A stretch of 43,463 bases of DNA from Anaerolineae bacterium (lineage in GTDB: Bacteria; Chloroflexota; Anaerolineae; B4-G1; DUEL01), in NCBI GenBank assembly GCA_041082215.1, contig JBDOIF010000043.1, positions 1-43,463 on the forward strand. The letters are read 5' to 3'. The notes beneath the pieces were generated by a model. That model was not told the origin of the DNA, made no database searches, and saw only the letters and a list, made by a program, of their open reading frames with translations. A program made the position numbers and the translations under genes. Of this stretch, positions 5,682 to 22,678 are shown piece by piece (position 1 is the stretch's first letter; each line of letters starts with the position of its first letter).

Positions 5682-6961
5682 AGAACAACCGGGAGCGGTT
5701 GGCCTGGTTCATCCTCCTGTTCTCTTTCTTTCTCTGCGTGGTGCTTGCCGTGGGTACCCCGCTGGGAGTGCAGTATTTCCTGCGGACCGCTTCCGCGTCC
5801 CAGAAGGCATCGCTGGAACCGCAGGAAGGGACGCCCCGGATGCGGCGGCGAGGGCAGGGGGAGGCCATCGCCCTCATCGGGCCGACGTGGGATGTCCCGG
5901 CTGGCACGGTGATCTCCACCGACACCGCAGCCGAGGGGCTGCTCACCCTCTACACGCCCGGCCCGGAGTCCGAGGCGGTGGCCTGGGTGAAGATCTATGA
6001 CCAGACGGAGGTGGTCCTGCGCTATGCCCGGTCTCCCCGTTTTTCGGTCAGCTCGCTCCCTCACAGGGTGGCACTGGAAGTGCGTCTGCCGACCCACCCC
6101 CAGGCAGATCTGTCGCCCGAGCAGACGGGACGGGCTGAGGCCCGCGTGCGGGTCAGCGTGGTGCCAGCGGGAGGCCGGGACACGGTGATGGAGATCCATA
6201 CCTCCCACTTCGTCGCCTTACTCCAGGGGGGAAGCTACGAGATCCGGGTCAGGGATGGGCAGGCCGAGCTGAGCGTCATTGAAGGCACTGCCCAGATCAC
6301 CCCGCCCGACGGCAAAGCAGTCGTGGTGGATCGTTCCCAGCGGGCCGTCGTCCGCTCCGGCTCGGGGAGCGTGGACATCCTGCCCGGGGAACGGAACCTG
6401 CTGAGGAATGGCGACTTCCGCCTGCCGCTGGAGGAGGACTGGCAGGTCTACCATAAGGATGTGCAGCAGAACCCACCAGGCACAGTAGAGGCGATCACCT
6501 TTGCTGGCCGCTCCGTCGCCCGGTTCCACAGGGAGGGGATGGGGCACGCCGAGGTCGGGATCGGGCAGCAGGTCAACTACGATGTTCGGGATTTCACTTC
6601 ACTGGTCTTCCGTCTCAGCGTGCTGATCCAGAACCAGAGCCTGCCCGGATGCGGCCAGTTGGGGTCCGAGTGCCCCATTCTCGTCCGTATAGACTACAAG
6701 GACGTCTACGGGACCGACCGGACCTGGTACCACGGTTTCTTTTCCCAGCCTCCGGGGGGAACCGACCTGCTGAATCCGTGGGACGAACGGATCCCTCCTC
6801 AGGCGTGGTATACCTTTGACTCCGGAAATCTGATTGACCCTGAGAACCCGGTCGGGCCTTTTGAGGTCCCTCCCGCCCTGATCAAAGGGGTCACCATCTA
6901 CGCCTCAGGCCACTCCTTTGAGGCGCTGGTGACGGATGTGGAGCTCCTGGCGCAGGAATAA
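5678..6961 (+). CDS. Single-pass membrane protein with FecR-like beta domain and C-terminal carbohydrate-binding-like domain
   Basis: N-terminal TM helix; beta-rich LSVIEGTAQI-type FecR-like segment; NLLRNGDF start typical of jelly-roll/CBM-like modules; ATGA coupling to acyP. Confidence 0.6.
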   Translation: MKNNRERLAWFILLFSFFLCVVLAVGTPLGVQYFLRTASASQKASLEPQEGTPRMRRRGQGEAIALIGPTWDVPAGTVISTDTAAEGLLTLYTPGPESEAVAWVKIYDQTEVVLRYARSPRFSVSSLPHRVALEVRLPTHPQADLSPEQTGRAEARVRVSVVPAGGRDTVMEIHTSHFVALLQGGSYEIRVRDGQAELSVIEGTAQITPPDGKAVVVDRSQRAVVRSGSGSVDILPGERNLLRNGDFRLPLEEDWQVYHKDVQQNPPGTVEAITFAGRSVARFHREGMGHAEVGIGQQVNYDVRDFTSLVFRLSVLIQNQSLPGCGQLGSECPILVRIDYKDVYGTDRTWYHGFFSQPPGGTDLLNPWDERIPPQAWYTFDSGNLIDPENPVGPFEVPPALIKGVTIYASGHSFEALVTDVELLAQE

Positions 6962-8187
6962 CCCAGCAGCCGGGTCACCCGTTCCATCACGGCTTCGGCA
7001 ACGGCTACTTTACTCATCAGTGGCAGCTCGTCCACCTGCCCTTCCCGGTCCAGGATCGCCACCCGGTTGGTTTCCACCCCGAAGCCTGCGTCGGCGGCGG
7101 TGATGTCGTTGGCGACGATCAGGTCCAGCCGCTTGGCTGCGAGCTTGGCGCGGGCGTTCTCGACCAGGTCCTGGCTTTCGGCAGCGAAGCCGACGACAAC
7201 CCGCGGGAGGCCGGTGTCGGCCCGATGTGCTGCAACTTCGGAAAGGATGTCCGGAGTGCGGGTCAGCCGCAGGGTCAGTTCTCCCTCTCCCTTCTTGATC
7301 TTGTGGGGGGCGGTCTCAACGGGCCGGTAGTCGGCCACCGCGGCGGACATCAGCAGCACGTCGGCATCCTCCACGGCGCTCAGGACCGCGTCCCGCATCT
7401 GGCAGGCAGTGGTCACCTCCACCCGCCGCGCTCCCACCGGCGTGGGGAGGGAGGTGGGACCGGTGATGAGGACGACCCCGGCCCCCCGGTCCAGTGCCGC
7501 CTGGGCCAGCGCAAACCCCTGTCGGCCGGAGGAGGGGTTGCTGAGGAAACGGACGGGGTCGAGGGGTTCCCGGGTGGGGCCGGCGGTGACCACCACCTTT
7601 CGACCGGCCAGCGGCCCTGCCCGTCCCAACACCCGGCGGATGTGGCCCAGTAGCTCCTCCGGCTCGATCATTCTCCCCTCACCCGTAAGGCCCGATGCCA
7701 TCCGGCCGTGGACCGGCCCGGCGAAGTGGACAGAGCGTGTCCGCAGGACCTCCACATTGGCCTGGTTTGCCGGGTGGGCCCACATTCCCGCATCCATCGC
7801 CGGAGCGACCAGCACCGGGCAGGAGGCGGCCAGGGCGAGGGTGGTGAGCAGGTTGTCGGCGATGCCGTGGGCCAGCTTGGCCAGCGTGTTGGCGGTGGCG
7901 GGGGCGATCACCATCAGGTCGGCGGCGTGGGCCAGGCCGATGTGGGCGATGTGGGTGGGCAGCCCCTCGGTGGGCGCGGCCCACAGGTCGGTGTAGACCG
8001 GCCGGCCGGTGAGGGCCTGAAAGGTGAGGGGGGCCACAAAGCGGGTCGCGGCCTCCGTCATCACTACGTCCACCTGCGCCCCGGCCTGGGTCAGGTGGCT
8101 GGCCAGCGTGCAGACCTTGTAGGCGGCGATCCCCCCCGTAACGCCGAGAAGGATGCGCCTGCCGGTCAAAAGAGGAATCGGGTCCAT
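6898..8187 (-). CDS. coaBC: Bifunctional phosphopantothenoylcysteine decarboxylase/synthetase
   Basis: ILLGVTGGIAAYK, APATAN, APAM, VTAGPTREPLDPVRFLSNPSSGRQG, AAVADY, VGFAAE, IVANDI; AAGGAGG RBS before ATG 8187. Confidence 0.95.
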   Translation of the reverse strand: MDPIPLLTGRRILLGVTGGIAAYKVCTLASHLTQAGAQVDVVMTEAATRFVAPLTFQALTGRPVYTDLWAAPTEGLPTHIAHIGLAHAADLMVIAPATANTLAKLAHGIADNLLTTLALAASCPVLVAPAMDAGMWAHPANQANVEVLRTRSVHFAGPVHGRMASGLTGEGRMIEPEELLGHIRRVLGRAGPLAGRKVVVTAGPTREPLDPVRFLSNPSSGRQGFALAQAALDRGAGVVLITGPTSLPTPVGARRVEVTTACQMRDAVLSAVEDADVLLMSAAVADYRPVETAPHKIKKGEGELTLRLTRTPDILSEVAAHRADTGLPRVVVGFAAESQDLVENARAKLAAKRLDLIVANDITAADAGFGVETNRVAILDREGQVDELPLMSKVAVAEAVMERVTRLLGYSCARSSTSVTSASKEWPEA

Positions 8188-8226
8188 CGAACCCTCCTTA
8201 TCCTGCACGGCTCTTGTGGGAACAAC

Positions 8227-8400: not shown

Positions 8401-9165
8401 CTACCGATTCAGCTCGTAGATGATCCTTAGTCCGTGGAGGGTGAGCCAGGGGTCCACCACGTCAATCACTTCTGTCTCGCGGGCGATAATCTCCGCCAGC
8501 CCTCCGGTGGCGACGACGCGGGTCTCGGGGCCCAGTTCCGCCCTGAAGCGGGCCACCATTCCCTCCACCAGCCCTACATAGCCGAAGAGGAGCCCGGACT
8601 GCATGCTGTGGACGGTGTTGCGGCCGATAACGGAGGGAGGGCGGGTGAGCTCGACGCGGGGCAGCTTGGCGGTGCGCTCGAAAAGGGCCTGGGCGGCGAT
8701 ACCGATGCCGGGGGCGATGGCCCCGCCCAGATAGTCCCCTTCGGCGGAGACGGCGTCGAAGGTGGTGGCGGTGCCGAAGTCCACCACACAGGCGGGGACG
8801 CCGTAGAGGGCCCGCACGGCGGCGGCGTCCACCACCCGGTCCGCCCCCACCTCCCGTGGGTTGTCGTACCGGATGCGCACGCCGGTCCGCACCCCTGCGT
8901 CCACCACCAGCGGCTCCTGGCCCAGGTATTCCCGGCAGGCCTGAACGAAGGTGGGGGTGAGGGGAGGGACGACGCTGGCGATGGCGATGCCGGTCACCTC
9001 TTCCGGCCGGTGGCCCCGATGGCGGAAGAGCTGGTCCATCAGGATGCCGTATTCGTCGGGCATCTTGTCGTGGATGGTGCGGATCCGCCAGCTTGGGCCG
9101 AGCTTTTCCCCTTCGTAAAGGCCAAAGGTGATGTTGGTGTTGCCGATATCTATAGCCAGCAACAT
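8401..9165 (-). CDS. coaX: Type III pantothenate kinase
   Basis: LAIDIGNTN, SVVP, VGADR, VDFGTATT, GGAIAPG, ATGG; AAAGGAGG RBS before ATG 9165. Confidence 0.95.
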   Translation of the reverse strand: MLLAIDIGNTNITFGLYEGEKLGPSWRIRTIHDKMPDEYGILMDQLFRHRGHRPEEVTGIAIASVVPPLTPTFVQACREYLGQEPLVVDAGVRTGVRIRYDNPREVGADRVVDAAAVRALYGVPACVVDFGTATTFDAVSAEGDYLGGAIAPGIGIAAQALFERTAKLPRVELTRPPSVIGRNTVHSMQSGLLFGYVGLVEGMVARFRAELGPETRVVATGGLAEIIARETEVIDVVDPWLTLHGLRIIYELNR

Positions 9166-9338: not shown

Positions 9339-9366
9339 ATTATATTTCAACGCGGGCGGGTGTCAA
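9339..9366 (-). promoter_or_regulatory. Consensus sigma70-type promoter of coaX
   Basis: Minus strand TTGACA (9366-9361), 16-bp spacer, TATAAT (9344-9339). Confidence 0.8.
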
Positions 9367-9583: not shown

Positions 9584-9615
9584 AAAAGGAGGCGGGGTCC
9601 CGCGGAACCCCGCCT
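9584..9615 (-). terminator. Intrinsic terminator downstream of the panT-like gene
   Basis: Minus strand AGGCGGGGT-tccgcggg-ACCCCGCCT followed by CCTTTT. Confidence 0.65.
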
Positions 9616-9652: not shown

Positions 9653-10195
9653 CTACAGCTTGGATTTGCCCGTGCCTGTTTCGATGCGCTTCCAGGCGAC
9701 CACCACCGCGACGACAATGATGCAGGCTACGATGATCTCAGGAATCCCGTGGGTCACGCCGACGGTCAGGGCGACACCCGGAGCCATATACCCCCGGACC
9801 GTCGCCATGGTCAGCACGAGGACGGTGTTGGTGAGCGTGCCAACGGTGGCGGCGACGATCAGCGCGACGTATTCATTGAACCGCTTGAGGCCCGCATAGG
9901 TGAAGTAGGCAGTGATGCCGATGAAGATACGGGGGAGAATGGCCACCAGAGGGTCTTTGAAGAGGGGGACTGTGGCCTGGAGGAAGCTGAAAATGCCGAA
10001 GATTGTGCCGATGACTCCCCCGACGAGCCAGCCCTCCATGATCCCGCCGATGATGGCCGGCACGTGCATGATGGTGGCATTTCCCGCTGCGGTGGGGACC
10101 GGGATGAAGCCGAGCCGGGTAGCGCCGAGGAGGATCGCGATGGCGGAGAGCACACCAGCGATCACGATCTTACGGACGGTGAAGCCCTTTTCCAT
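9653..10195 (-). CDS. panT: ECF transporter S component, PanT-like (pantothenate)
   Basis: 180-aa all-hydrophobic protein with LGFIPVP, TIMHVPAIIG, ILPRI and GTLTNTVLVL motifs; pantothenate gene context. Confidence 0.8.
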   Translation of the reverse strand: MEKGFTVRKIVIAGVLSAIAILLGATRLGFIPVPTAAGNATIMHVPAIIGGIMEGWLVGGVIGTIFGIFSFLQATVPLFKDPLVAILPRIFIGITAYFTYAGLKRFNEYVALIVAATVGTLTNTVLVLTMATVRGYMAPGVALTVGVTHGIPEIIVACIIVVAVVVAWKRIETGTGKSKL

Positions 10196-10404: not shown

Positions 10405-11625
10405 TCACGGCTGCACCACGCCCAGGTAACGCAGCATGGTAAGGACATACAACCGGGTGGCCTCGATGAGCTGGGCGATGTCCAGATATTCGTCTACCTG
10501 ATGGGGGATCTGTGTGTTTCCTGGCCCGCAGGTGACGATGGGAATACTGGCCCATGCATAGAGGATGGTCCCATCGGTGCTGCCCGGCACGCCGCCGTAG
10601 GTCGGCTCTTTCCCGGTGAGGTCGCGGTACGCCTCAGCCATTGTCTGGACCAGCGGCTCGTCCCGGGGCGTGGCGGTGGGGGGCCTGCTGTCCAGCACCT
10701 CCATGGTGAACTCCGCCTCCGAATCGCGCTGGCCGTTCAGGATGGCCCGGATCTGGTCGGCGAGCCGTTCTGGCGACTGGCCGGGGATGAGGCGGATATC
10801 CAGCGTGAGGGTGCCCTCCCCTGGCATAACGTTGTTCTGGGGTTCCCCCGCCACGGGCGAACGGATGATGGTCGGTGTGATGCTGGGCTGCCCCAGGAAG
10901 GGGTGTGAACCGTGGGCCTCGATGGTGGCAGCCTCCAGCGCCTCCAGCTGGGTCAGTGCCCGTCCCAGCGGGTAGATGGGGTTGATCCCTTCCAGAGGCA
11001 TGCAGCCGTGGGACATTTTGCCTTTTGCGGCGATGCGTACCCACATCACCCCTTTCTGAGCGATGCAGAGGCGATTGTCCTCCGGCTCGCAGATCACGGC
11101 GGCGCTCACTCTCTCCGCCCAGCCCTGCCGGACAAAGTGCTTCACCCCCAGCATCAGCCCCTCTTCATCGGCCAGGGCGCCCAGAAGGACGTTCCCCTTC
11201 AGCCGAACGCCGCTTTCGATGACCGCTTTCATCGCGCAGAGGGCGGCCACCAGCCCCCCCTTCATGTCACAGGAGCCGCGCCCGTAAATCCTGCCGTCTG
11301 CAACCTCGCCGCCGAAGGGGTCGTACTTCCATTGGGACCGATCCCCTTCGGTGACCACGTCTGTATGCCCCTCGAACATCAGGGTCTTCTCCCCTTCACC
11401 CTCCAGGACAGCGATCACGTTGGGCCGGCCCGGCGCTGCCTCCTCCCAGTGGGGGGATAGCTCCATCTCCTCCAGCCGCTCCCGAATCCACCGGGCCGCC
11501 TGCTCTTCTGTCTCCCCCTTCTCCGGACGGTAGACGCTGGGGATGCGGACCAGCTCCTGGGTCCATCGGACCACTTCATCGGGATTGATCAGTCGGAGGA
11601 CCTGTTGTTCCAGTTGGGTTAGCAT
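10405..11625 (-). CDS. M20 family metallo-amidohydrolase (ArgE/DapE-like)
   Basis: EGHTDVV, GRGSCDMKGG, DEEG, CEP, SHG and HQVDE metal ligand motifs. Confidence 0.9.
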   Translation of the reverse strand: MLTQLEQQVLRLINPDEVVRWTQELVRIPSVYRPEKGETEEQAARWIRERLEEMELSPHWEEAAPGRPNVIAVLEGEGEKTLMFEGHTDVVTEGDRSQWKYDPFGGEVADGRIYGRGSCDMKGGLVAALCAMKAVIESGVRLKGNVLLGALADEEGLMLGVKHFVRQGWAERVSAAVICEPEDNRLCIAQKGVMWVRIAAKGKMSHGCMPLEGINPIYPLGRALTQLEALEAATIEAHGSHPFLGQPSITPTIIRSPVAGEPQNNVMPGEGTLTLDIRLIPGQSPERLADQIRAILNGQRDSEAEFTMEVLDSRPPTATPRDEPLVQTMAEAYRDLTGKEPTYGGVPGSTDGTILYAWASIPIVTCGPGNTQIPHQVDEYLDIAQLIEATRLYVLTMLRYLGVVQP

Positions 11626-11651
11626 GACCTGCTCCTTGTGCTCATAGGGGT

Positions 11652-12509
11652 TTAAAAGGGAAAGGCGTTGCGGAAGATCGTCATCGCGGCCGAGAAGGCC
11701 AGCATGGTGAAATAGGCGACATAATCCGCGCGTGAGAAGCGGAATTTGACCAGTTTGGTGCGTTTGCGCCCTCCGATATAGCAGCGGGCCTGCATGGCCA
11801 GGATCAGGTCCTCGGCCCGACGGAAGGCGTCTATGAACAGGGGAACGATCAGCACAATGACCTGACGGGTCGTCTGAATGAACTGGAGCTTCCCCTTGGT
11901 GCCAAGGTCAGCACCCCGCGAGGCCTGGGCCTTCATGATGATTTCCAACTGCTCGGCCAGGATGGGTACAAAGCGGAGGGCGGTCGTCCCCACCAGGGCC
12001 AGCTCGTGGCCGGGCACGCCGATCTTGGAGAAGGGGGAGAGCATCGCCTCCATGCCGTTGGTGAGGTCCGAGGTGGTGGTCGTGTTGGTGAGGAGGCTGG
12101 TCAGGAAGAGCAGTTCCAGGAACCGGAGGGTGGAGATAATGACCAGTTGGACGCTCCCGTTGGTGATGTGGATCCAGCCCCAGCGGAGAATGGTCTGCGA
12201 TTCGGCGTTGTAGGGAATGTACGCATCTCCGTAGAAAAGCAACTGCAGGATCGCCAGCACCACGATGAAGGGAATAGCTGGCTTGACCCCGGAGAGGATG
12301 TATTTGAGTGAGATCTTGGAAAGAAGCACAAACCCCAGGCAGGCCAGAAGGAGGATCACGTTGGCCATATAGGAGATATTGAAGGTGATGGCGATGATCA
12401 CAAAGAGCGTGATGGAAATCTTGGCCCGTGGGTCCAGCCGGTGGACCAGGGAATCGCCGGGCAGGTACTGGCCGATCGTTATGTTGCGGAGGAATTCAAA
12501 ATCTTCCAT
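11652..12509 (-). CDS. ecfT: ECF transporter transmembrane T component
   Basis: GQY-x-PGDS-x-x-H-x-LDPRAK, LRFVP, AQASRG, AMQARCY. Confidence 0.92.
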   Translation of the reverse strand: MEDFEFLRNITIGQYLPGDSLVHRLDPRAKISITLFVIIAITFNISYMANVILLLACLGFVLLSKISLKYILSGVKPAIPFIVVLAILQLLFYGDAYIPYNAESQTILRWGWIHITNGSVQLVIISTLRFLELLFLTSLLTNTTTTSDLTNGMEAMLSPFSKIGVPGHELALVGTTALRFVPILAEQLEIIMKAQASRGADLGTKGKLQFIQTTRQVIVLIVPLFIDAFRRAEDLILAMQARCYIGGRKRTKLVKFRFSRADYVAYFTMLAFSAAMTIFRNAFPF

Positions 12510-13357
12510 ATGGCTTCTTTCCCTTCCTGGACGCTGATGACCGTTGTCGGGGGAAGCTTGCCCCGCTGTGCCAGTTCGTGGACGATCTCGGTGATCTGAG
12601 GGACGCCGAGGCCGTAGCGGACCAGTTCTTCGGGACGGGAGAAGACCTCGCGGGTCGTCCCGCTCATCACCGTGCGCCCGTCGTCAATGACGTAGACCCG
12701 GTCCACCAGCTCCGCCACGTCCTCCATATTGGGGGAGACAAAGATCACGGTAAGGCCGTATTCTTCGTGGAGTCGGCTGATGTGCCCCAAAAGCTCCTTG
12801 CGGCTCCTGGGGTCCACACCGGAGGTGGATTCGTCCAGGATGAGGACTTTGGGCCGGAGGGCCAGGACGCCAGCGATGGCAGCCTTCCGCATCTCGCCGC
12901 CGCTGAGGGTAAAAGTGTAGCGGTCCTTGAAGGCCTCAAAGCTCAGCCCCACCATCTCCATCGCCTCCCGCACCCGCTCCCGCACCTCGTCCATCGGGAG
13001 TCCCATCTTGAGGGGGCCGAAGGCTACGTCGTCTCCCACGAACCGCTCGAAGAGCTGCTGTTCGGGGTACTGGAAGACCAGCCCCACCTTCTGCCGCAAC
13101 GCCCGGATGTCAACGGCGGGATCGGCCAGGTCCACCCCGTCCACGATGACCTTCCCCCGTTCCCGGGGGCGGATCAGGCCGTTGAAGTGCTGGACAATGG
13201 TGGATTTTCCCGCACCGGTCCGTCCGATGATCCCCACCGCCTCGCCGGGGTAGATTTCCATCGTCACCCCTTTGAGGGCCGTCACCTCCAGAGGGGTGCC
13301 CCGCAGGTAGTTGTGGTGCAGGTCGTTGACCTGGATGATCGGCTCTCTACCCTCCAT
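12479..13357 (-). CDS. ecfA2: ECF transporter ATPase A'
   Basis: GRTGAGKST, VFQYPEQQLF, LSGGE, ILDES. Confidence 0.9.
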   Translation of the reverse strand: MEGREPIIQVNDLHHNYLRGTPLEVTALKGVTMEIYPGEAVGIIGRTGAGKSTIVQHFNGLIRPRERGKVIVDGVDLADPAVDIRALRQKVGLVFQYPEQQLFERFVGDDVAFGPLKMGLPMDEVRERVREAMEMVGLSFEAFKDRYTFTLSGGEMRKAAIAGVLALRPKVLILDESTSGVDPRSRKELLGHISRLHEEYGLTVIFVSPNMEDVAELVDRVYVIDDGRTVMSGTTREVFSRPEELVRYGLGVPQITEIVHELAQRGKLPPTTVISVQEGKEAIWKILNSSAT

Positions 13358-14214
13358 CAGCGCACCCTCCCATTTCGCCGGCAGACCTCTTCCACGACCT
13401 CCTGGACGGTGAGGAGGTCGGGTGGGAAGTCGGGCCTCAGTTTGTGGAGCTCGTAGGCTACCTCGGTGGGCTGGGGCACATCCAGCATCAGCTCCCGCAG
13501 CGCCTCCACCTGACTGAACACCTCGCGGGGCGTGCCCTCCATCACAATACGCCCTGCCTCCATCACGATCACCCGGTTCCCCTCCGTGGCCTCGTGCATA
13601 AAGTGGGTGATGGCGATGACCGTGATCCCCTCTTCCTGATTCAGCCGCCGCACCGCCTTCAGCACCTCATTCCTGCCAACGGGGTCCAGCATGGCGGTGG
13701 ATTCGTCCAGGACCAGCACGTCGGGCTTCATGGCCATCACACCGGCGATAGCCACCCGCTGCTTCTGACCGGCGGAAAGGCGGTGGGGCGCCCGGTGGCG
13801 GTAGGGCAGCATGTCCACCACGCCGAGGGCCCACTCGACCCGCCGTTCGATCTCCTCGGGAGGAAGCCCCAGGTTCTCGGGGCCAAAAGCTACGTCGTGT
13901 TCCACCAGGGTGGCGACGATCTGATTGTCGGGGATCTGGAACACCATCCCCACGCTGCTGCGGATGTCCAGGGTGTGCTGGGGGTCTTTTGTGTTCATCC
14001 CCTTCACCCAGACGTCCCCTTCTGTGGGCAGGAGCAGGGCGTTCAGATGCTTGGCCAGGGTGGATTTGCCGGACCCGTTGTGCCCGACGATCACGAGGTA
14101 GTCCCCCCGATAGAGGGAGAGGTTGATGTTGCGGAGGGCGATGATGGGGTTTGCCGATTCGGCGTTGTAGGCGAAGGTTACGTTCTCCACTCGAATGATG
14201 GGTTCTTCGGACAA
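13357..14214 (-). CDS. ecfA1: ECF transporter ATPase A
   Basis: GHNGSGKST, VFQIPDNQIV, LSAGQKQR, VLDESTAMLDP; TTG start. Confidence 0.9.
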   Translation of the reverse strand: MSEEPIIRVENVTFAYNAESANPIIALRNINLSLYRGDYLVIVGHNGSGKSTLAKHLNALLLPTEGDVWVKGMNTKDPQHTLDIRSSVGMVFQIPDNQIVATLVEHDVAFGPENLGLPPEEIERRVEWALGVVDMLPYRHRAPHRLSAGQKQRVAIAGVMAMKPDVLVLDESTAMLDPVGRNEVLKAVRRLNQEEGITVIAITHFMHEATEGNRVIVMEAGRIVMEGTPREVFSQVEALRELMLDVPQPTEVAYELHKLRPDFPPDLLTVQEVVEEVCRRNGRVR

Positions 14215-14258: not shown

Positions 14259-15239
14259 TTATCCTCCCACTGATCCAAGGTCGCCGGGGGCCGGGATACC
14301 CCCCAGGGAGGAGGCCCTGGTGACAGCGCGGACGACGGCCTCCGCCATCGCTTCGGCGGCGAAAGCGCCCAGGATGCTCACGTCCGGCCTTTCTTCTGCT
14401 TCTCCTGTTGCCAGGGCGAAGATCGCGTCCCCATCCCACATTGTGTGGATGGGGCGGATGGTGCGCGCCAGCCCGTCGTGGGCCATCTGGGCCATCTTGT
14501 TCGCTTCCTCTTTGCTCAGGCGGGCGTTAGTGGCGACAACCCCGATCGTGGTGTTCGTGGCGGGGAAGCCCCGTGCCGCACCGGCCAGCCCATGGCGGAG
14601 GGCCTGCATCGTATCCAGGAATCGGCCGCTCTGGGGATCGCGCGTGCCGGCCAGGATTTGGCCGGTCTGGGGGTCCACCACGTCGCCGAAGGCGTTGACG
14701 GCGACCAGGGCAGCCACGATGATGGGGCCCAGGTGGATGCTGGCCGTGCCCACCCCGGACTTGGTGGCGTAGAAGGGGCCGAGAAGCTTCCCCACCGTGG
14801 CCCCGGTGCCCGCTCCTACCGAGCCTTCGGCCACAGGGCCATCGGTGGCCGCTTCGCAGGCGGCGTAGCCAGCGGCCGCATTGGGGCGGGCGGAGGGGCT
14901 GCCGATGGTGAGGTCGAACAGGACGGCGGCGGGGACGATGGGGACTCTGGCGACGCCCGTGTCGAACCCTATCCCCCGCTCCTCCAGGAAGCGCATCACC
15001 CCGCCGGCAGCGTCCAGGCCAAAGGCGCTGCCTCCGGCCAGCAGAACAGCGTGGACCTCCTGTACCAGGCGGGTGGGGCGCATCAGGTCGGTCTCCCGGG
15101 TACCCGGCGCAGAGCCACGCACGTCCACCCCGGCGACGGCTCCCTGAGGGCAGAGGACCACTGTGCAACCGGTGATTCCGTTCAGGTCTGTGTAATGGCC
15201 AACCCGGATCCCCCGGATATCTGTGATACCGTTGCCCAT
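14259..15239 (-). CDS. P1 (DmpA/ThnT-like) autoproteolytic amidohydrolase
   Basis: ITDI-x-GIRVGH, RGSAPGTRETD, GGSAFGL, VPIVP, GAGTGA, NTT (Thr nucleophile type), HTMWDGD; AGGAG RBS before ATG 15239. Confidence 0.88.
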   Translation of the reverse strand: MGNGITDIRGIRVGHYTDLNGITGCTVVLCPQGAVAGVDVRGSAPGTRETDLMRPTRLVQEVHAVLLAGGSAFGLDAAGGVMRFLEERGIGFDTGVARVPIVPAAVLFDLTIGSPSARPNAAAGYAACEAATDGPVAEGSVGAGTGATVGKLLGPFYATKSGVGTASIHLGPIIVAALVAVNAFGDVVDPQTGQILAGTRDPQSGRFLDTMQALRHGLAGAARGFPATNTTIGVVATNARLSKEEANKMAQMAHDGLARTIRPIHTMWDGDAIFALATGEAEERPDVSILGAFAAEAMAEAVVRAVTRASSLGGIPAPGDLGSVGG

Positions 15240-15292
15240 AGCACCTCTCCTGTACACGTCTGGATTCCGAGGGGAGAACAAACTGCGGGGAT

Positions 15293-15335
15293 AGTCGTCT
15301 GTCGACATTATACTACAGACAATGCAATCCGTCAA
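15293..15335 (-). promoter_or_regulatory. Promoter of the P1-ECF-M20-panT operon with overlapping operator box
   Basis: Minus strand TTGACG (15335-15330), 17-bp spacer, TATAAT (15312-15307), running directly into the TGTCGACA palindrome (15300-15307). Confidence 0.8.
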
Positions 15336-15344
15336 GCAGGTTGA

Positions 15345-15391
15345 TTGACAACGGCCAGAAAGCATGATACACTATATGTCGACTGTAGACA
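15345..15391 (+). promoter_or_regulatory. Promoter of gntR-panB-panE with overlapping operator box
   Basis: TTGACA (15345-15350), 17-bp spacer, extended TG-n-TACACT (15365-15373), then TGTCGACTGTAGACA (15377-15391). Confidence 0.8.
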
Positions 15392-15432: not shown

Positions 15433-16125
15433 ATGAGCAATGAAGAGCTGACCCTTCCCAAGGTCTCGTACAGGTCCCTGCGGGTCGCGGCCTACGCCGC
15501 GATCCGCGAAGCGATCCTCGCCGGGCAGCTTAAGCCAGGCGAGCGCCTCGTCGAGGCGGAGCTGGCGCAGCAGTTGGGCATCAGCCGTGCCCCTGTGCGG
15601 GAGGCGATCCGACAGCTGGAGTCGGAGGGGCTGGTCGTCGGCCTCCCCCATCGGGGCGCCTTCGTGGTCCGGCTCTCCCCGCAGGACCTCTGGGAAATCT
15701 ACACCCTTCGCGCCGCCGTGGAAGGCCTGGCCGTCCGGCTGGTGGCCTCTGCTCCCGACCCGGAGGTGATGCAGAGGCTGGAGGAGCTGGTCCATCGGAT
15801 GCGGGAAGCGGCCAGGAAGGATCAGAGAAAAGAGCTTCCCCGCCTCGACCTCCTCTTCCACGAGACGATCTGCCAGGCCGCCGGCCACCGTCGGCTTCTT
15901 GAAGCCTGGCAGGGCATGTATGCCCAGGTCCAGATGTTCATCTCCATCAGCGGCCACTACGAGGTCCCTCCCCAACAACTGGTAGCTTACCACGAAGAGG
16001 TCCTGGAGGCAATCCGCAAAGCAGACCCGGGGCGGGCCGAAAGGCTGCTCAGGGAGCATATCCTGACGGTGGGTGAGCGCATCGTCGCCACGCTGCAGGC
16101 AAAGGGGAATGAGGAGCAAGGATAA
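15433..16125 (+). CDS. GntR family regulator with FCD domain
   Basis: wHTH LKPGERLVEAELAQQLGISRAPVREAIRQLESEGLV; FCD motifs RAAVEG, DLLFH, H-x-x-VLEAI. Confidence 0.93.
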   Translation: MSNEELTLPKVSYRSLRVAAYAAIREAILAGQLKPGERLVEAELAQQLGISRAPVREAIRQLESEGLVVGLPHRGAFVVRLSPQDLWEIYTLRAAVEGLAVRLVASAPDPEVMQRLEELVHRMREAARKDQRKELPRLDLLFHETICQAAGHRRLLEAWQGMYAQVQMFISISGHYEVPPQQLVAYHEEVLEAIRKADPGRAERLLREHILTVGERIVATLQAKGNEEQG

Positions 16126-16176: not shown

Positions 16177-17025
16177 ATGGAGCGCAAGAAAGTAACGATC
16201 GTTGACCTTCAGGAGAAGAAGGAACGGAGGGAGCCGATCACGATGGTCACCGCCTATGATTACCCGACCGGCCTTCTTGTAGACCAGGCAGGAATTGATA
16301 TCGTCCTCGTTGGGGACTCGCTGGCGATGGTGGTGCTGGGGCACGAGAACACCGTCGAGGTCACGATGGAGGAGATGCTCCATCACTGCAAGGCGGTCGC
16401 CCGCGGGGCCAGGTATCCTCTCCTGGTGGGGGATATGCCCTTTATGTCCTATCAGGTCCACCGCCGGGAGGCGATCCGCAACGCCGGCCGTTTCCTCAAG
16501 GAGGGCCGGATGGACGTGGTGAAGCTGGAGGGCGGCCTGGAAATGGCTGAGACGGTGAAGGCCATCGTGGATGCGGGGATCCCGGTGATGGGGCACATCG
16601 GACTGACCCCCCAGACGATCTCGAAGCTCGGGGGGTTCAGGGTGCAGGGCAAGAGCGTCGAGGCGGCCAGGAAGCTTGTGGAGGACGCCCGCGCACTGGA
16701 AGAGGCAGGGGCTTTCGCCATCATCCTCGAAGCTGTCCCCGACCGGCTGGCTGCTCTGATCACCGAACGGGTGCGCGTGCCCACCATCGGCATCGGCGCG
16801 GGCCCTCACTGCGATGGCCAGGTGCTCGTCCTCCACGATATGATCGGCCTCTTCGACCGCTTTACCCCCAAGTTCGTCAAGCGGTACGCCAATATCTTTC
16901 CCATCGTTGTGGAAGCTCTGACCCGGTACAGGCAGGAGGTACTGGATGGGACCTTCCCCCAGCCGGAGCACTGCTTCACGATGAAGGATGAGGTGTACGA
17001 GGCGCTGCTGGCGGAGCTGGGGTGA
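16177..17025 (+). CDS. panB: 3-methyl-2-oxobutanoate hydroxymethyltransferase
   Basis: TAYD, LVGDSL, DMPF, VKLEGG, GHIGLTPQ, IGIGAG, DGQVLV. Confidence 0.96.
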   Translation: MERKKVTIVDLQEKKERREPITMVTAYDYPTGLLVDQAGIDIVLVGDSLAMVVLGHENTVEVTMEEMLHHCKAVARGARYPLLVGDMPFMSYQVHRREAIRNAGRFLKEGRMDVVKLEGGLEMAETVKAIVDAGIPVMGHIGLTPQTISKLGGFRVQGKSVEAARKLVEDARALEEAGAFAIILEAVPDRLAALITERVRVPTIGIGAGPHCDGQVLVLHDMIGLFDRFTPKFVKRYANIFPIVVEALTRYRQEVLDGTFPQPEHCFTMKDEVYEALLAELG

Positions 17026-17075
17026 GACGCGGGGAGGGGGTGATGCGGGGACGCGGAGATACGGAGGGAGAAGCA

Positions 17076-17999
17076 GTGAGGATCGGGGTGATCGGTTCCG
17101 GGGCGATGGGTTGTCTCTATGGGGCCTACCTCTCCCGGGTGGCGGAAGTAGTCCTCTTCGACTCCTGGGAAGCGCACGTGGAGGCGATCCGTGAACAGGG
17201 GCTGTTCCTGGAGGAACTGGACGGATCTCAGGAGTGTTTCCGGCTCCCGGCCACGACGAAGGTCGGGGAGGTGGGGGAGGTTGATCTGGCGCTGGTCTTC
17301 GTCAAATCCCACCAGACCGCCTGGGCGGCGGAGGTGGTTCGGACGGTCCTGCGGCCAGAAGGGATCGCCCTCACGCTCCAGAATGGCGTGGGGAACCGGG
17401 AGGTGCTGGCCCGGGCGCTGGGGGAGGAGCGGGCGCTGCAGGGGGTAACGGCCCACGGGGCCACGCTCCTGGGACCGGGGCGGGTCCGGCATGCGGGCCA
17501 GGGCCCCACCCATCTGGCCCTCTCCCCCGTCACCGGGGAGTGGGTGGAGCGGATCGCGGAGCTCTTCCAGGCAGCCGGGCTGGAGGTCCATCTCTCCGAG
17601 GACCTGGACGGGTTGATCTGGGGGAAGCTGCTGATCAACGTGGGGGTCAACGCGCTCACGGCGATCCTGCGAGTGCCCAACGGCCATCTGGTGGAGAACC
17701 CTCCGGCGCGGGAAGTGATGGGGCTGGCAGTGCGGGAGGCCGCGGCTGTGGCCGGGGCCATGGGAGTGCGGCTGCCGTACCCCGATCCGGTGGGACGGGC
17801 AGAGGAGGTCTGCCGGGCGACGGCGGCCAACCGCTCCTCCATGCTCCAGGACGTGTTGCGGGGAAGTCCCACGGAGATTGACGTCATCAACGGGGCCATC
17901 GTCCGGGAGGGGGAGCGGCTCGGGCTAGCGACCCCCGTGAACAGGCTGCTGACGCTTCTGGTGAAGGCGATCGAGCAGAGTTATAATGTGCGGGTCTGA
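17076..17999 (+). CDS. panE: Ketopantoate reductase family protein
   Basis: GSGAMG, VKS, LQNG, WGKL-x-IN, SSMLQD, TEID-x-ING; GTG start at 17076 with GGAGG RBS. Confidence 0.92.
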   Translation: MRIGVIGSGAMGCLYGAYLSRVAEVVLFDSWEAHVEAIREQGLFLEELDGSQECFRLPATTKVGEVGEVDLALVFVKSHQTAWAAEVVRTVLRPEGIALTLQNGVGNREVLARALGEERALQGVTAHGATLLGPGRVRHAGQGPTHLALSPVTGEWVERIAELFQAAGLEVHLSEDLDGLIWGKLLINVGVNALTAILRVPNGHLVENPPAREVMGLAVREAAAVAGAMGVRLPYPDPVGRAEEVCRATAANRSSMLQDVLRGSPTEIDVINGAIVREGERLGLATPVNRLLTLLVKAIEQSYNVRV

Positions 18000-18146: not shown

Positions 18147-19496
18147 ATGGACGTAAAGAAAGGCTTATCGGCGGAGGAGATCGTCCGGCTGAACCGGGAG
18201 TACACTTTCTTCTCCTGGACAGCCCAGGCAGCGGTGGACCCGATCCCTGTGGTCCGGGGTGAGGGGGTGTACTTCTGGGATGCCAGCGGGAAGCGGTATA
18301 TTGATTTCGCCTCCCAGTTGATGAACCTCAACATCGGCCACCAGCACCCCAAAGTGGTCCGGGCCATCCAGGAGCAGGCCAGCCGCCTCTGCTACGCCTA
18401 CCCGGGGATGGCGACGGAGCCGCGGGGGCTTCTGGGGCGCATGCTGGCGGAGGTGACCCCTGGCCGGTTGAAGAAGTCCTTCTTCTGCCTGGGCGGGGCG
18501 GAGGCGAACGAGAACGCTATCAAGATCGCCCGTATGGTCACCGGCCGCTGGAAGGTCATCGCCCGGTACCGCTCCTACCACGGCGCAACGCACGGAGCCA
18601 TCGCCCTCACCGGCGAACCCCGCCGCTGGCCGGCTGAGCCAGCGATGCCAGGGGTGATCCACGTCTTCGATCCTTACTGCTACCGGTGCCACTTCGGCTG
18701 GACCCCCGAAACCTGCCATCGGGAATGCATCACCCATATCGAGGACGTGATCCGCTTTGAGGGGCCGGAGAACATTGCAGCGGTTCTGATGGAGGGGGTG
18801 ACCGGCTCCAACGGCATCATCGTCCCGCCGGACGACTACTGGCCGCGGATCCGGGAGATCTGCGATCGGTACGGCATCCTCCTGATCTCCGACGAGGTGA
18901 TGAGCGGGTTCGGGCGGACCGGCAGGTGGTTTGCGGTGGACAATTGGGGGGTGGAGCCGGATATGATCACGATTGCCAAGGGGCTAACTTCCGGCTATGT
19001 GCCACTGGGCGCGGTGGTGGTCTCTGAGGCCATCGCCGACCATTTTGAGGATCACGTCCTCTGGTGCGGGCTGACCTACAGTGGCCACACGCTGGCCTGC
19101 GCCGCCGCCATCGCCACGCTTCAGGTGTACCAGGAGGATGGCCTTATCGAGAACGCTGCCCGGATGGGCCGGGTGCTGGGGCGTCGGCTGGAGGAGCTGA
19201 AAGAGCGCCATCCCTCGGTGGGGGACGTGCGGTATATCGGCCTCTTCTCGGTCATCGAGGTGGTGAAGGACCGGAAGACGAAAGAGCCGATGGCCCCCTG
19301 GAACGCCAAATCCTCGGAGATGGGGGCGATGGGGGAACTGGCGAAGTTCCTCCGGCAGAATGGCCTCTATACTTTTGTGCGGTGGAACTGGGTCTTTGTT
19401 GTCCCCCCTCTGTGCATCAACGAAGCCCAGATGGATGAGGGATTGGCGATCATTGACGAGGCGCTGAAGATCACCGACGGGGCCTGCACGGGCTGA
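18147..19496 (+). CDS. Class III PLP aminotransferase (omega-amino acid; beta-alanine/taurine-type)
   Basis: GGAEANE, SYHG, SDEVMSGFGRTG, AKGLTSGYVPLG, GLTYSGH. Confidence 0.9.
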   Translation: MDVKKGLSAEEIVRLNREYTFFSWTAQAAVDPIPVVRGEGVYFWDASGKRYIDFASQLMNLNIGHQHPKVVRAIQEQASRLCYAYPGMATEPRGLLGRMLAEVTPGRLKKSFFCLGGAEANENAIKIARMVTGRWKVIARYRSYHGATHGAIALTGEPRRWPAEPAMPGVIHVFDPYCYRCHFGWTPETCHRECITHIEDVIRFEGPENIAAVLMEGVTGSNGIIVPPDDYWPRIREICDRYGILLISDEVMSGFGRTGRWFAVDNWGVEPDMITIAKGLTSGYVPLGAVVVSEAIADHFEDHVLWCGLTYSGHTLACAAAIATLQVYQEDGLIENAARMGRVLGRRLEELKERHPSVGDVRYIGLFSVIEVVKDRKTKEPMAPWNAKSSEMGAMGELAKFLRQNGLYTFVRWNWVFVVPPLCINEAQMDEGLAIIDEALKITDGACTG

Positions 19497-19581: not shown

Positions 19582-21051
19582 CTATATCTCTCGCAGCAGC
19601 CCGGTCATCTCGTTGAATCGGGTGATCAGGGCGTCTATCTCCTCCACCTGTCCGTGGATGCCGGTCCAGTAGTCGGGATCGTACCACTGGGCCTGGATCT
19701 CCTCGTAGGTCTTTCCCTGCTGCTCCACCCAGGTGTAGTACTTGAGGTTGTGGATGCGGCGGCGGTCCCAGTATCCCAGCTCGAACACGTAGTCCACCGT
19801 ACATCCCAGGAGATAACGGTGGTAATCGGCGGCGGCGTCCAGCTCGGTGTACTCCCCCCGCTCCTGCCGCAGCTCCAGCAGCCGGCTCTGGTAAAGCTCC
19901 ATCGAGTCGGTGAAGACGGTAAGGACCACGTCGTGTTCTCCCAGCTCATACCACCTGGCGAACTTGATGGCGGAGAGGACGTTGGCGATACTGGAGATGC
20001 CCAGGAGGTCGAGCCGCTCCACCAGCCCTTCCGGCACCCCTCGCTTCAGCAGATAGGCCCGCCCGGCCGGCTCGTTGAAGAGCCGTACCAGGCTCATGCA
20101 GGCCTCGTCGTCTATGGCCATCACCATATCGGTGTTGCGGACGTTGTGGATCCAGGGGACGTGCTTGTCGCCGATCCCCTCGATGCGGTGGCCGCCGAAG
20201 CCGTTGAGGATCAGGGTGGGGCACTGGAGCGCCTCGCTGGCGGCGACCTTGCTGGTGGGGAAGACCTTCTTCAGATAATCCCCGCAGCCGATGGTGCCGG
20301 CCGAGCCGGTGGTGAGCACCACCCCCCGGTAGGTGTCCCGCGGCCCCAGCTCCTGCTGGAGGACCTCCTCCATCGCGTGGCCGGTGACCTCGTAGTGCCA
20401 GAGGTGGTTGCCGAACTCCTCGAACTGGTTGAAGATAAAGACGTCCTCCCGCGTCTCCCGCAGCTCCCAGGTTTTGTCGAAGATCTCTTTGACGTTGCTC
20501 TCACAGCCCGGCGTGGCGATCACCTCTCCGGCGAAGCGGGAGAGCCACTCGAACCGTTCGCGGCTCATGCCCTCCGGAAGGATGGCGATGGACTCACAGG
20601 CCAGCAGGGTGGCGTTGTAAGCTCCGCCCCGACAGAAGTTACCGGTGGAGGGCCAGACCGCCTTGTGGTAGGTGGGGTCGAACTGACCGGTGACCAGCCG
20701 GGGCACCAGGCAGCCGAAGGTGGCCCCTACCTTGTGGGAGCCGGTCGGGAACCACTTGCCCACCAGGGCGATGATGCGGGCCGGGACTCCGGTGAGCGCA
20801 GGCGGCAGTTCGACGTAGTTGACCCCGCCGAACCCGCCGCCTGAGGGAACCGGCTCGTTCTTCCAGGTGATGCGGAACAGGTTGAGGGGGTCCACATCCC
20901 ACAGGCCGATCTTCCGTAGCCGTCCCTTGATCCCGTCGGGGATAAGGGAGGGGTCCCTCATCTGAGCGAAGGTGGGGATGACGATCCCCCGCTCGCGGGC
21001 GCGTTGCACCGTCCGATCCAATCGGGTTTTGTTCACGCTCAGATCAATCAT
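19582..21051 (-). CDS. PLP-dependent fold-type II (PALP, cysteine/threonine synthase-like) enzyme of unknown specificity
   Basis: FPTGSHKVG (PLP lysine), STGNF, GSAGT, HRIEGIG, GISS. Confidence 0.82.
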   Translation of the reverse strand: MIDLSVNKTRLDRTVQRARERGIVIPTFAQMRDPSLIPDGIKGRLRKIGLWDVDPLNLFRITWKNEPVPSGGGFGGVNYVELPPALTGVPARIIALVGKWFPTGSHKVGATFGCLVPRLVTGQFDPTYHKAVWPSTGNFCRGGAYNATLLACESIAILPEGMSRERFEWLSRFAGEVIATPGCESNVKEIFDKTWELRETREDVFIFNQFEEFGNHLWHYEVTGHAMEEVLQQELGPRDTYRGVVLTTGSAGTIGCGDYLKKVFPTSKVAASEALQCPTLILNGFGGHRIEGIGDKHVPWIHNVRNTDMVMAIDDEACMSLVRLFNEPAGRAYLLKRGVPEGLVERLDLLGISSIANVLSAIKFARWYELGEHDVVLTVFTDSMELYQSRLLELRQERGEYTELDAAADYHRYLLGCTVDYVFELGYWDRRRIHNLKYYTWVEQQGKTYEEIQAQWYDPDYWTGIHGQVEEIDALITRFNEMTGLLREI

Positions 21052-22631: not shown

Positions 22632-22678
22632 TCCGGCTGGAGCGGCTGTCCGATCGCCGGGTGGAGGGAAGAGGAGGG

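Follow-up and report, generated by a model that had tools for sequence, protein, structure and literature searches.

Which reaction is catalyzed by an amidase whose gene opens a vitamin B5 transport operon? This question is raised by a contig of 43,463 nucleotides from an Anaerolineae bacterium (JBDOIF010000043.1, assembly GCA_041082215.1; "the window" below means this whole stretch), in which a gene for a P1-family peptidase (Pfam Peptidase_S58; hereafter the S58 gene and the S58 protein) precedes the genes of an energy-coupling factor (ECF) transporter and adjoins genes for pantothenate and coenzyme A (CoA) synthesis. Pantetheine is the commonest breakdown fragment of CoA, and bacteria whose only pantothenate kinase (PanK) is of type III cannot phosphorylate it, so that pantetheine should be useless to them. 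According to the accessible text of a 2026 review, ThnT, an enzyme of antibiotic biosynthesis, is the only known case of a microbial pantetheine hydrolase (PMC13602198), and in the accessible part of a curated vitamin B5 reconstruction covering 2,228 gut genomes no pantetheinase role is listed and pantetheine enters only through a kinase shunt (PMC6593275). A literature search covering the main texts of open-access papers and preprints found no bacterial pantetheinase of primary metabolism and no link between P1/S58 proteins and pantothenate.

The evidence presented here gives somewhat better than even odds that the S58 protein is a cytoplasmic amidase of the pantetheine type, which would provide pantothenate to a type III kinase (CoaX) that is blind to pantetheine. 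The substrate would most likely be pantetheine itself, or else a very close pantothenoyl amide, and cleavage of its beta-alanyl-cysteamine amide would give pantothenate and cysteamine. Pantetheine, whether imported or formed in the cell, would thus be returned from a dead-end CoA fragment to a substrate of CoaX and CoaBC; since CoaX cannot phosphorylate pantetheine, this step would make the fragment usable, and the S58 protein probably recovers vitamin B5 from fragments of CoA. An earlier reading of this DNA from its letters alone (the original prediction) had proposed a ThnT-like pantetheinase serving CoaX. Its support is strong for the family placement and the linkage to pantothenate (pan) and CoA genes; the substrate and the physiology are what we infer. 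Its premise that type III kinases do not accept pantetheine is backed by work on Bacillus subtilis, in the accessible text of which growth on pantethine requires CoaA, CoaX being unable to sustain it (PMC11487621). What is new here is the primary-metabolism setting of a known kind of enzyme, seen through a recurrent pan/CoA gene context.

The S58 Protein and its Relatives

The S58 gene likely starts at the ATG at 15239, which has a GGAGAGG ribosome-binding site just 5′ of it, and the gene limits given in the original prediction hold, with a product of 326 amino acids (Table 1). This product matches PF03576 (Peptidase_S58) over profile positions 1-301 of 307 (E 5e-51, 174.5 bits vs. a cut-off of 23.9); an NCBIfam search found no model for it, and no second S58 gene was found in the source genome, which is 96% complete. 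Its AlphaFold model (pLDDT 94.8) has an alpha-beta-beta-alpha fold that Foldseek finds in common with Nyl50, ThnT, NylC, BapA and DmpA (probability 1.00 each).

The N-T-T triplet on which the original prediction was built was read correctly on the minus strand, and in HMMER alignments it falls on the "NTT" of Nyl50 (9cxr) and mature ThnT (3tm1). The ThnT residue changed in the PDB entries titled T282C and T282A is the counterpart of T230 in the alignment, and the Asn before the Thr nucleophile, at the ThnT N281/T282 position, is present as well, a feature common to Nyl50 and NylC. An alignment of 59 sequences shows no variation at T230, N182 and D269-G270-D271 and conservation of 90% or more at K151, N229 and T231; presumably these conserved residues match the catalytic and autoprocessing residues of NylC. 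Most likely, autocleavage at the N229/T230 bond splits the precursor into an alpha chain (1-229) and a beta chain (230-326) with T230 as the nucleophile. The N-terminus coincides with the domain start of the solved relatives and thus bears no signal peptide, so that the protein should be cytoplasmic.

Within the P1 family, the S58 protein belongs to the Thr-nucleophile branch of Nyl50, ThnT and NylC. Its closest solved relative is Nyl50 (9CXR; phmmer against PDB sequences E 1e-79, 272 bits; Foldseek 48% identity, TM score 0.87/0.94), and ThnT follows with E 1e-61 and 212 bits (Foldseek 44-45% identity, TM 0.81; BLASTP 47% with ThnT from the S. cattleya megaplasmid pSCAT; overall range 44-49%), as do 9YYS (E 1e-60), NylC (E 3e-35, 125 bits) and Nyl12 (E 4e-28). 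No DmpA or BapA chain was matched by phmmer at E 0.01 or better; both stand at 20% identity and a TM score of about 0.69 in Foldseek, the order of which on the S58 model is Nyl50, ThnT, NylC and then BapA/DmpA. The protein is therefore rightly placed on the ThnT side rather than the DmpA side. The idea that N-T-T is a hallmark of ThnT did not survive: Nyl50 has N-T-T, NylC cleaves at N266/T267 (title of 7yu0) and many orthologues read N-T-V, the pattern among 91 homologues encoded at the collected loci being N-T-T in 41, N-T-V in 26 and another variant in 3, with 21 lacking a match.

ThnT (PDB 3TM1, 3S3U, 4IHD, 4IHE), from the thienamycin cluster of Streptomyces/Streptantibioticus cattleya, resembles the S58 protein in Pfam family, in fold, in the aligned N/T-T site and in the invariant Asn, Lys and D-G-D positions, and the chemistry proposed for the S58 protein, pantetheine to pantothenate plus cysteamine, is that of ThnT, which is called "a pantetheine hydrolase" in a PDB title. 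Pantetheine was reportedly identified as its substrate by Freeman and colleagues in 2008. ThnT differs in having insertions of about 40-60 residues and in serving secondary metabolism: a metallo-beta-lactamase-fold gene and a SARP regulator gene flank the ThnT gene, whereas the S58 gene lies in vitamin B5/CoA operons. NylC, the 6-aminohexanoate-oligomer endohydrolase of Arthrobacter sp. KI72 (3AXG, 5XYG), has the same fold and a Thr after Asn, but only 32% identity (Foldseek; TM about 0.8). It is plasmid-borne together with nylA and nylB, neither of which was found among the window genes, the neighbors of the S58 gene being ECF, pan and coa genes. Nyl50 (9CXR, 9DYS), a member of a metagenomic panel of NylC homologues, has the N-T-T site and a similar length; it differs in that its only known activity is on a man-made polymer. 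In the accessible text of the Nyl50 preprint, its nucleophile is Thr227, the panel lacks nylA/nylB-type neighbors, and the native function of the panel is given as not established, nylon degradation being judged improbable (bioRxiv 10.1101/2024.11.14.623603).

Two further enzyme groups are more remote. DmpA, an L-aminopeptidase/D-esterase, and BapA, a beta-peptidyl aminopeptidase (1B65, 3N2W), are self-processing and have the Pfam family and the alpha-beta-beta-alpha fold in common with the S58 protein, but use a Ser nucleophile (BapA S250A, title of 3n5i) instead of Thr, and DmpA is processed at a Gly/Ser site. Vanin-1, the animal pantetheinase of the nitrilase superfamily, is comparable in the proposed reaction and in the recovery of pantothenate from CoA breakdown; it has an unrelated fold and a Cys nucleophile, and is extracellular and anchored by glycosylphosphatidylinositol.

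The original prediction had called for a phylogeny against ThnT, DmpA, BapA and NylC. A tree of 118 rows (IQ-TREE, LG+G4, quick search, SH-aLRT support) was built from the window protein, locus homologues of at least 270 amino acids, ThnT, ten homologues from a plasmid collection and every fifth representative of 50% clusters between 295 and 380 amino acids; NylC, DmpA and BapA were placed by PDB bit scores and Foldseek ranks instead. Two distant P1 peptidases served as the outgroup; a peptide-type ATP-binding cassette (ABC) transporter and an M81 peptidase are encoded next to the first, and an amidase next to the second. The ingroup of 116 rows (support 100) holds the window protein, ThnT and all pan-linked members, which occur in nearly every subclade, Firmicutes lines included. 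ThnT itself groups (support 96) with two alphaproteobacterial homologues lacking a pan context. The expected kinship with ThnT thus stands at family level, and the backbone does not order the subclades.

Among close homologues, domain fusions were noted in five proteins (P0123, P0156, P0167, P0134 and P0182), the partners being a GNAT acetyltransferase in two of them and an SSF symporter, HPPK or NAD(P)HX dehydratase in one each. The GNAT-S58 fusion recalls what we take to be a ThnT/ThnF pairing in thienamycin biosynthesis. The SSF fusion was considered as a clue to the pantothenate symporter PanF and discarded, as its SSF part scores 29 bits vs. a PanF cut-off of 328; no fusion partner was decisive.

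Recurrent Linkage to Pantothenate and CoA Genes

Gene context was assessed in two sets of loci, linkage being defined as a match (tblastn with the window proteins) to CoaX, CoaBC, PanB, PanE, the S component, the M20 deacylase or EcfT within 6 kb. The first set, limited to one genome per species, comprises 80 orthologue loci at 54-73% identity, mostly from Chloroflexota. Linkage was found in 36 of them, with PanB in 13, CoaBC in 12, CoaX in 11, M20 in 10 and the S component in 9, and the linked genes appear in at least four orders (coaX-coaBC-S58; ecfA1-ecfA2-ecfT-M20-S58-S component; S58 near panB; S58-S component-coaX). The second set comes from the Bacillota-type phylum to which Thermovenabulum belongs, where an S58 protein was found in 47/151 genomes; after removal of three split matches, one match at 40% identity, second copies and weak matches, 40 full-length loci remained. 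Eighteen of these are linked, 13 of them to coaX, which lies directly 3′ on the same strand in 12; an S component sometimes intervenes between S58 and coaX, or birA lies 5′. Annotated records of named species illustrate this arrangement: Clostridioides difficile NZ_CP149720 (L094) has birA, a P1 peptidase, an ECF S component and a type III PanK, Anaerotruncus colihominis a type III PanK, an ECF S component and a P1 peptidase, and Lachnospira eligens an ECF S component and a P1 peptidase.

The expected chance of finding coaX in a 13-kb neighborhood is about 0.5% by a rough estimate (a single-copy gene in a genome of 2.5-3.5 Mb), against which the observed 11/80 and 13/40 loci with coaX within 6 kb are to be set, although related genomes are not independent. 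The variety of gene orders, together with the recurrence in a second phylum, argues for a functional coupling between S58 and the pan/CoA genes. The outcome feared in the original prediction, that the protein would cluster with DmpA-type enzymes devoid of pan linkage, was the opposite of what was found (36/80 and 18/40 loci, several orders, two phyla). Four distant P1 peptidases (31-43% identity) lie beside peptide/amino-acid ABC transporter genes (two of the four), an M81 peptidase, an amidase and unrelated genes, and none of them beside pan genes.

The position of S58 immediately 3′ of coaBC (coaBC-linked loci, 12/80) brings in another kind of amidase, one that repairs or recycles intermediates of the CoA pathway such as pantothenoylcysteine, 4′-phosphopantetheine, mixed disulfides (e.g., cysteinopantetheine) or mis-ligated and damaged products of CoaBC. 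A second amidase (M20) in the operon of the window suggests more than one amide substrate, and cysteinopantetheine is, in the accessible text of its source, a natural salvage metabolite of B. subtilis (PMC11487621). Against such a role, the PDB title of ThnT names a pantetheine hydrolase, and hydrolysis of 4′-phosphopantetheine within the operon that makes it would be futile. We know of no S58 relative with an amidase activity of the pantothenoylcysteine or 4′-phosphopantetheine type, and the repair role is considered unlikely, at roughly one chance in eight.

In four Clostridia (L094, L133, L134, L139), birA lies immediately 5′ of S58 and is followed by an S component and/or coaX, which puts S58 inside a birA-coaX pairing; in some bacteria birA and coaX are fused, a bifunctional form listed in the name of an NCBIfam model.

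Organization and Regulation of the Locus

In the window, a predicted unit of six genes runs from S58 through ecfA1, ecfA2, ecfT and the M20 deacylase gene to the gene for the PanT-like S component (Table 1), the successive spacings being 44 bp, 0 bp, an overlap, 26 bp and 209 bp. The claim that S58 is the first gene of this transcript agrees with the promoter-like site 5′ of it, the tight packing and the hairpin after the S component; a consensus scan found 8 promoter-like sites in the region vs. 1.4 expected.

Table 1. Positions and supporting matches of the features of the S58 locus (window coordinates)
Feature	Position	Strand	Remarks
CoaBC	6898..8208	-	PF04127 E 6e-72; PF02441 E 1.6e-35
CoaX, type III pantothenate kinase	8401..9165	-	PF03309 E 1.6e-77; NF009855 above cut-off
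Promoter-like site before coaX	9339..9366	-	TTGACA-16-TATAAT; perfect consensus, 12/12 matches
Terminator-like hairpin	9590..9615	-	After S component; 11 pairs, 8 G-C, then T-rich tail
PanT-like ECF S component	9653..10195	-	PF12822 E 3.5e-28
M20 ArgE/DapE-family deacylase	10405..11625	-	TIGR01910 268.9 bits vs. cut-off 217.6; best solved relative DapE 7uoi
EcfT transmembrane component	11652..12509	-	PF02361 CbiQ E 8e-36
EcfA2 ATPase	12479..13357	-	TIGR04521 323.7 bits, just below cut-off 330; PF00005 match
EcfA1 ATPase	13357..14214	-	TIGR04520 369 bits vs. cut-off 315
S58/P1 gene	14259..15239	-	Predicted self-processing Thr N-terminal-nucleophile (Ntn) amidase, 326 aa; longest open reading frame 14259-15365
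N229-T230-T231 codons	14547..14555	-	AAC-ACC-ACG; predicted autocleavage site N/T
Promoter-like site of S58	15307..15335	-	TTGACG-17-TATAAT; 5′ of S58 gene; consensus scan, 11/12 matches
Operator-like repeats (two)	15300-15321 and 15377-15391		TGTCGAC..TRYAGACA; between divergent S58 and gntR promoters
GntR/FCD regulator	15433..16125	+	PF00392, PF07729; divergent from S58 gene
panB	16177..17025	+	PF02548 E 1e-119
panE	17022..17999	+	PF02558, PF08546
Class III aminotransferase	18147..19496	+	3′ of panE; PF00202 E 6.5e-97; NF004718 above cut-off

EcfA1, EcfA2, EcfT and the S component together make up a module of the ECF-PanT type with putative specificity for pantothenate. The sole significant PDB match of the S component is 4RFS chain S (E 1.6e-9). 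The S component encoded in C. difficile between P1 peptidase and CoaX shares 51% identity with the one in the window and matches both 4RFS and 6ZG3; in the accessible text of their source, these two entries are ECF-PanT structures (PMC11521937). Five EcfT genes of the source genome exceed the Pfam cut-off, so that several such modules are present, of which the S58-linked one looks dedicated.

The genes coaX and coaBC follow the S component and are thus adjacent, as the original prediction had it, but their adjacency does not extend to a common transcript: the perfect promoter consensus 5′ of coaX indicates that coaX-coaBC is probably a separate, if adjacent, transcription unit. On the other side of S58, the GntR/FCD regulator gene heads the divergent arm with panB, panE and a class III aminotransferase gene. 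The two operator-like repeats between the arms are the sole matches to their pattern in the whole window, vs. 0.01 expected, and one of them overlaps the -10 element of the S58 promoter; they are a likely candidate for the GntR/FCD operator pair of a pantothenate regulon, which would place both arms under joint control. An Rfam scan of the window gave no match and no riboswitch.

The M20 deacylase gene sits inside the ECF operon, between ecfT and the S component. M20 genes also occur near S58 in 10/80 orthologue loci and in Thermovenabulum, and the enzyme may be a pantothenase or else a second amidase, with pantothenoylcysteine as its substrate. The aminotransferase, for which a role in beta-alanine/malonate semialdehyde metabolism may be suggested, is kept beside panE in locus L011 and, further off, in L090.

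Pathway Profiles and the Missing PanC

PanB, PanE, CoaD and CoaE are present in the source genome; searches of it for PanC, PanD and an archaeal phosphopantothenate synthetase revealed none of the three. Among 101 genomes of the same order that are at least 85% complete, an S58 orthologue occurs in 57 (families f1, f2 and f3 with 19/19, 36/39 and 1/42, plus the source genome), PanB in 29, PanC as a full-length match in 5 and PanD in 3; of the 29 genomes with PanB, 24 lack PanC. PanB without PanC is thus a real gap in the pathway, to be explained either by an unknown ligase or by a non-biosynthetic use of PanB and PanE.

Could the S58 protein itself fill this gap? On the one hand, the Thr nucleophile might take a pantoyl group (e.g., from pantoyl lactone) and pass it to beta-alanine, a PanC-independent synthesis that would suit the 24 PanB-positive genomes devoid of PanC and the co-location of panB, panE and the aminotransferase gene with S58; DmpA and BapA, of the S58 family, can indeed carry out aminolysis through an acyl-enzyme intermediate. 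On the other hand, genus g21 has PanB in 8/8 genomes with S58 and PanC both in 0/8, which argues against S58 as a substitute for PanC, and genus g3 keeps S58 in 11/11 genomes with PanB and PanC in 0/11, so that the enzyme is independent of de novo synthesis and of beta-alanine supply. Moreover, S58 and PanC occur in one operon. In G022, seven overlapping or abutting genes form a superoperon panB-panE-panC-panD-coaX-coaBC-S58 (L123 4810-10855; Pfam confirms panE through coaBC), the same order is found in G051 by tblastn and coordinates, and in G052 PanC, S58 and PanB are adjacent. An S58 that shares an operon with PanC and PanD coexists with them and does not replace them, and a PanC-independent synthesis by S58 is accordingly given the lowest credence of the readings treated here. 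Hardly higher stands its more specific version, in which the window and the Thermovenabulum locus described below would encode a route around the missing PanC, with pantoate from PanB/PanE and aminotransferase-made beta-alanine joined free of ATP by the Thr-Ntn enzyme, possibly together with M20, by way of a pantoyl-enzyme intermediate; vitamin B5 would then be made in these PanC-less bacteria by a route for which biology has no known precedent.

The same profiles bear on the possibility that S58 is an aminopeptidase or amidase of the DmpA/BapA type that releases beta-alanine to feed PanC where PanD is missing. Such enzymes cleave off N-terminal beta-amino acids, and in the source genome no PanD was found and panB and panE adjoin S58. 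However, no PanC that could be fed was found there either, S58 persists in genus g3 without PanB or PanC, it shares one operon with PanD in G022, G051, L125 and L149, and at 20% identity DmpA and BapA, with their Ser nucleophile, are distant; release of beta-alanine therefore appears improbable. As replacements of PanC or PanD, S58 proteins are largely rejected on these phylogenetic profiles. An amidase that is kept by auxotrophs and prototrophs alike, and is mostly joined to coaX, coaBC or a pantothenate transporter, fits a product that is pantothenate. In four orthologue-bearing genomes, no type I PanK scored above cut-off.

A catabolic scheme deserves more attention. In a Thermovenabulum sp. 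(L090 2823-14589), the gene order DUF997-SSF-M20-class III aminotransferase-PanB-OPT-S58-PanE-AFOR-IclR (AFOR, aldehyde:ferredoxin oxidoreductase) reproduces the enzyme set of the window with a PanF-like transporter in place of ECF-PanT, and no PanC was found in that genome. Conceivably, S58 opens pantetheine, M20 acts as a pantothenase yielding pantoate and beta-alanine, the aminotransferase removes the beta-alanine, and reversal of the PanE and PanB reactions takes the pantoate to 2-oxoisovalerate. The recurrence of a B5-type transporter, M20, aminotransferase, PanB, PanE and S58 in both loci fits this scheme, as do the presence of PanB and PanE in a source genome where PanC, PanD and the archaeal synthetase were not found, and the GntR/FCD regulator that heads the divergon. 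It is opposed by coaX-coaBC directly 3′ of the ECF operon and by the many loci in which S58 belongs to anabolic coaX-coaBC-S58 or panBECD-coaX-coaBC-S58 operons devoid of M20 and aminotransferase; furthermore, ECF transporters are high-affinity scavengers of vitamins, and the PanE equilibrium favors reduction. Catabolism is thus a minority possibility, on a par with the repair amidase discussed above. Whether the gap is due to catabolic PanE and PanB with M20 as a pantothenase or to an unknown ligase, pantetheine hydrolysis is still the most economical role for S58.

Weighing the Pantetheinase Assignment

Several observations weigh against a pantetheinase. Pan/CoA neighbors are missing from 44/80 and 22/40 loci, so that the linkage foreseen in the original prediction is recurrent in two phyla but extends to only about half of the orthologue loci. 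In 35 of the 44 unlinked loci of the first set, a Pfam scan of the nearest open reading frames (125 of 203 candidates) turned up nothing pan-related, the other nine loci having been left out for their very short flanks. All eight loci fetched from the auxotrophic genus g3 are likewise unlinked. The nearest solved relative is not ThnT but Nyl50, whose one known activity is promiscuous hydrolysis of nylon-66; the deeper forks of the tree are unresolved, and it puts ThnT in the same family-level clade as the pan-linked members without showing descent from pan-linked ancestors. M20, the aminotransferase, and PanB/PanE without PanC imply chemistry at the locus outside a simple salvage model. Finally, the co-occurrence of S58 with type I PanK rests on CoaA in 2/151 genomes, neither with S58, which is too few to inform.

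These unlinked loci would suit a general hydrolase of oligoamides or peptides whose vitamin B5 neighborhood is coincidental, and about 40% of 95 NylC homologues hydrolyzed nylon according to the accessible text of the Nyl50 preprint (bioRxiv 10.1101/2024.11.14.623603). Coincidence is hard to reconcile with the frequency of coaX within 6 kb (13/40 and 11/80 loci vs. the roughly estimated 0.5%) and with linkage in several gene orders and two phyla, and this explanation is considered very improbable.

Recurrent neighbors of unlinked S58 genes are G6PD with DegV, an AI-2E transporter, FTCD with PGA_cap, a HAD hydrolase and BirA. In three loci of Thermodesulfobacteriota/Deltaproteobacteria (L079, L084, L088), a HAD_2 hydrolase gene lies directly 3′ of the S58 orthologue, at about 11040-11870; it could parallel ThnH, which we take to be a HAD phosphatase acting before ThnT.

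Implications and Other Genes of the Window

Much more probable than an ATP-free bypass of PanC is that the S58 family supplies the pantetheinase long missing from the primary metabolism of bacteria with type III PanK only, gut Clostridia included, in which case Nyl50-like "nylonases" would be pantetheinases with a side activity. If so, a CoA salvage step would be added to Chloroflexota and to many Clostridia (Clostridioides, Anaerotruncus, Lachnospira), and models of vitamin cross-feeding would have to change which organisms they count as pantetheine users. The assignment would also bear on pantothenamide antimetabolites, which are destroyed by pantetheinases, and would suggest what the thermostable "nylon hydrolases" now being engineered for recycling do in nature.

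Beyond the pan arm, an open reading frame on the minus strand (19582-21051) that converges on the aminotransferase gene encodes a pyridoxal phosphate-dependent enzyme of 489 amino acids that distantly resembles cysteine synthase (PF00291 E 3e-12; far below the cut-off of the CysK model). Further on, an open reading frame of 1298 amino acids (22661-26557, plus strand) combines zinc ribbons, an adenylate/guanylate cyclase domain, an AAA_16 ATPase and a family-5 solute-binding domain in an unusual architecture.

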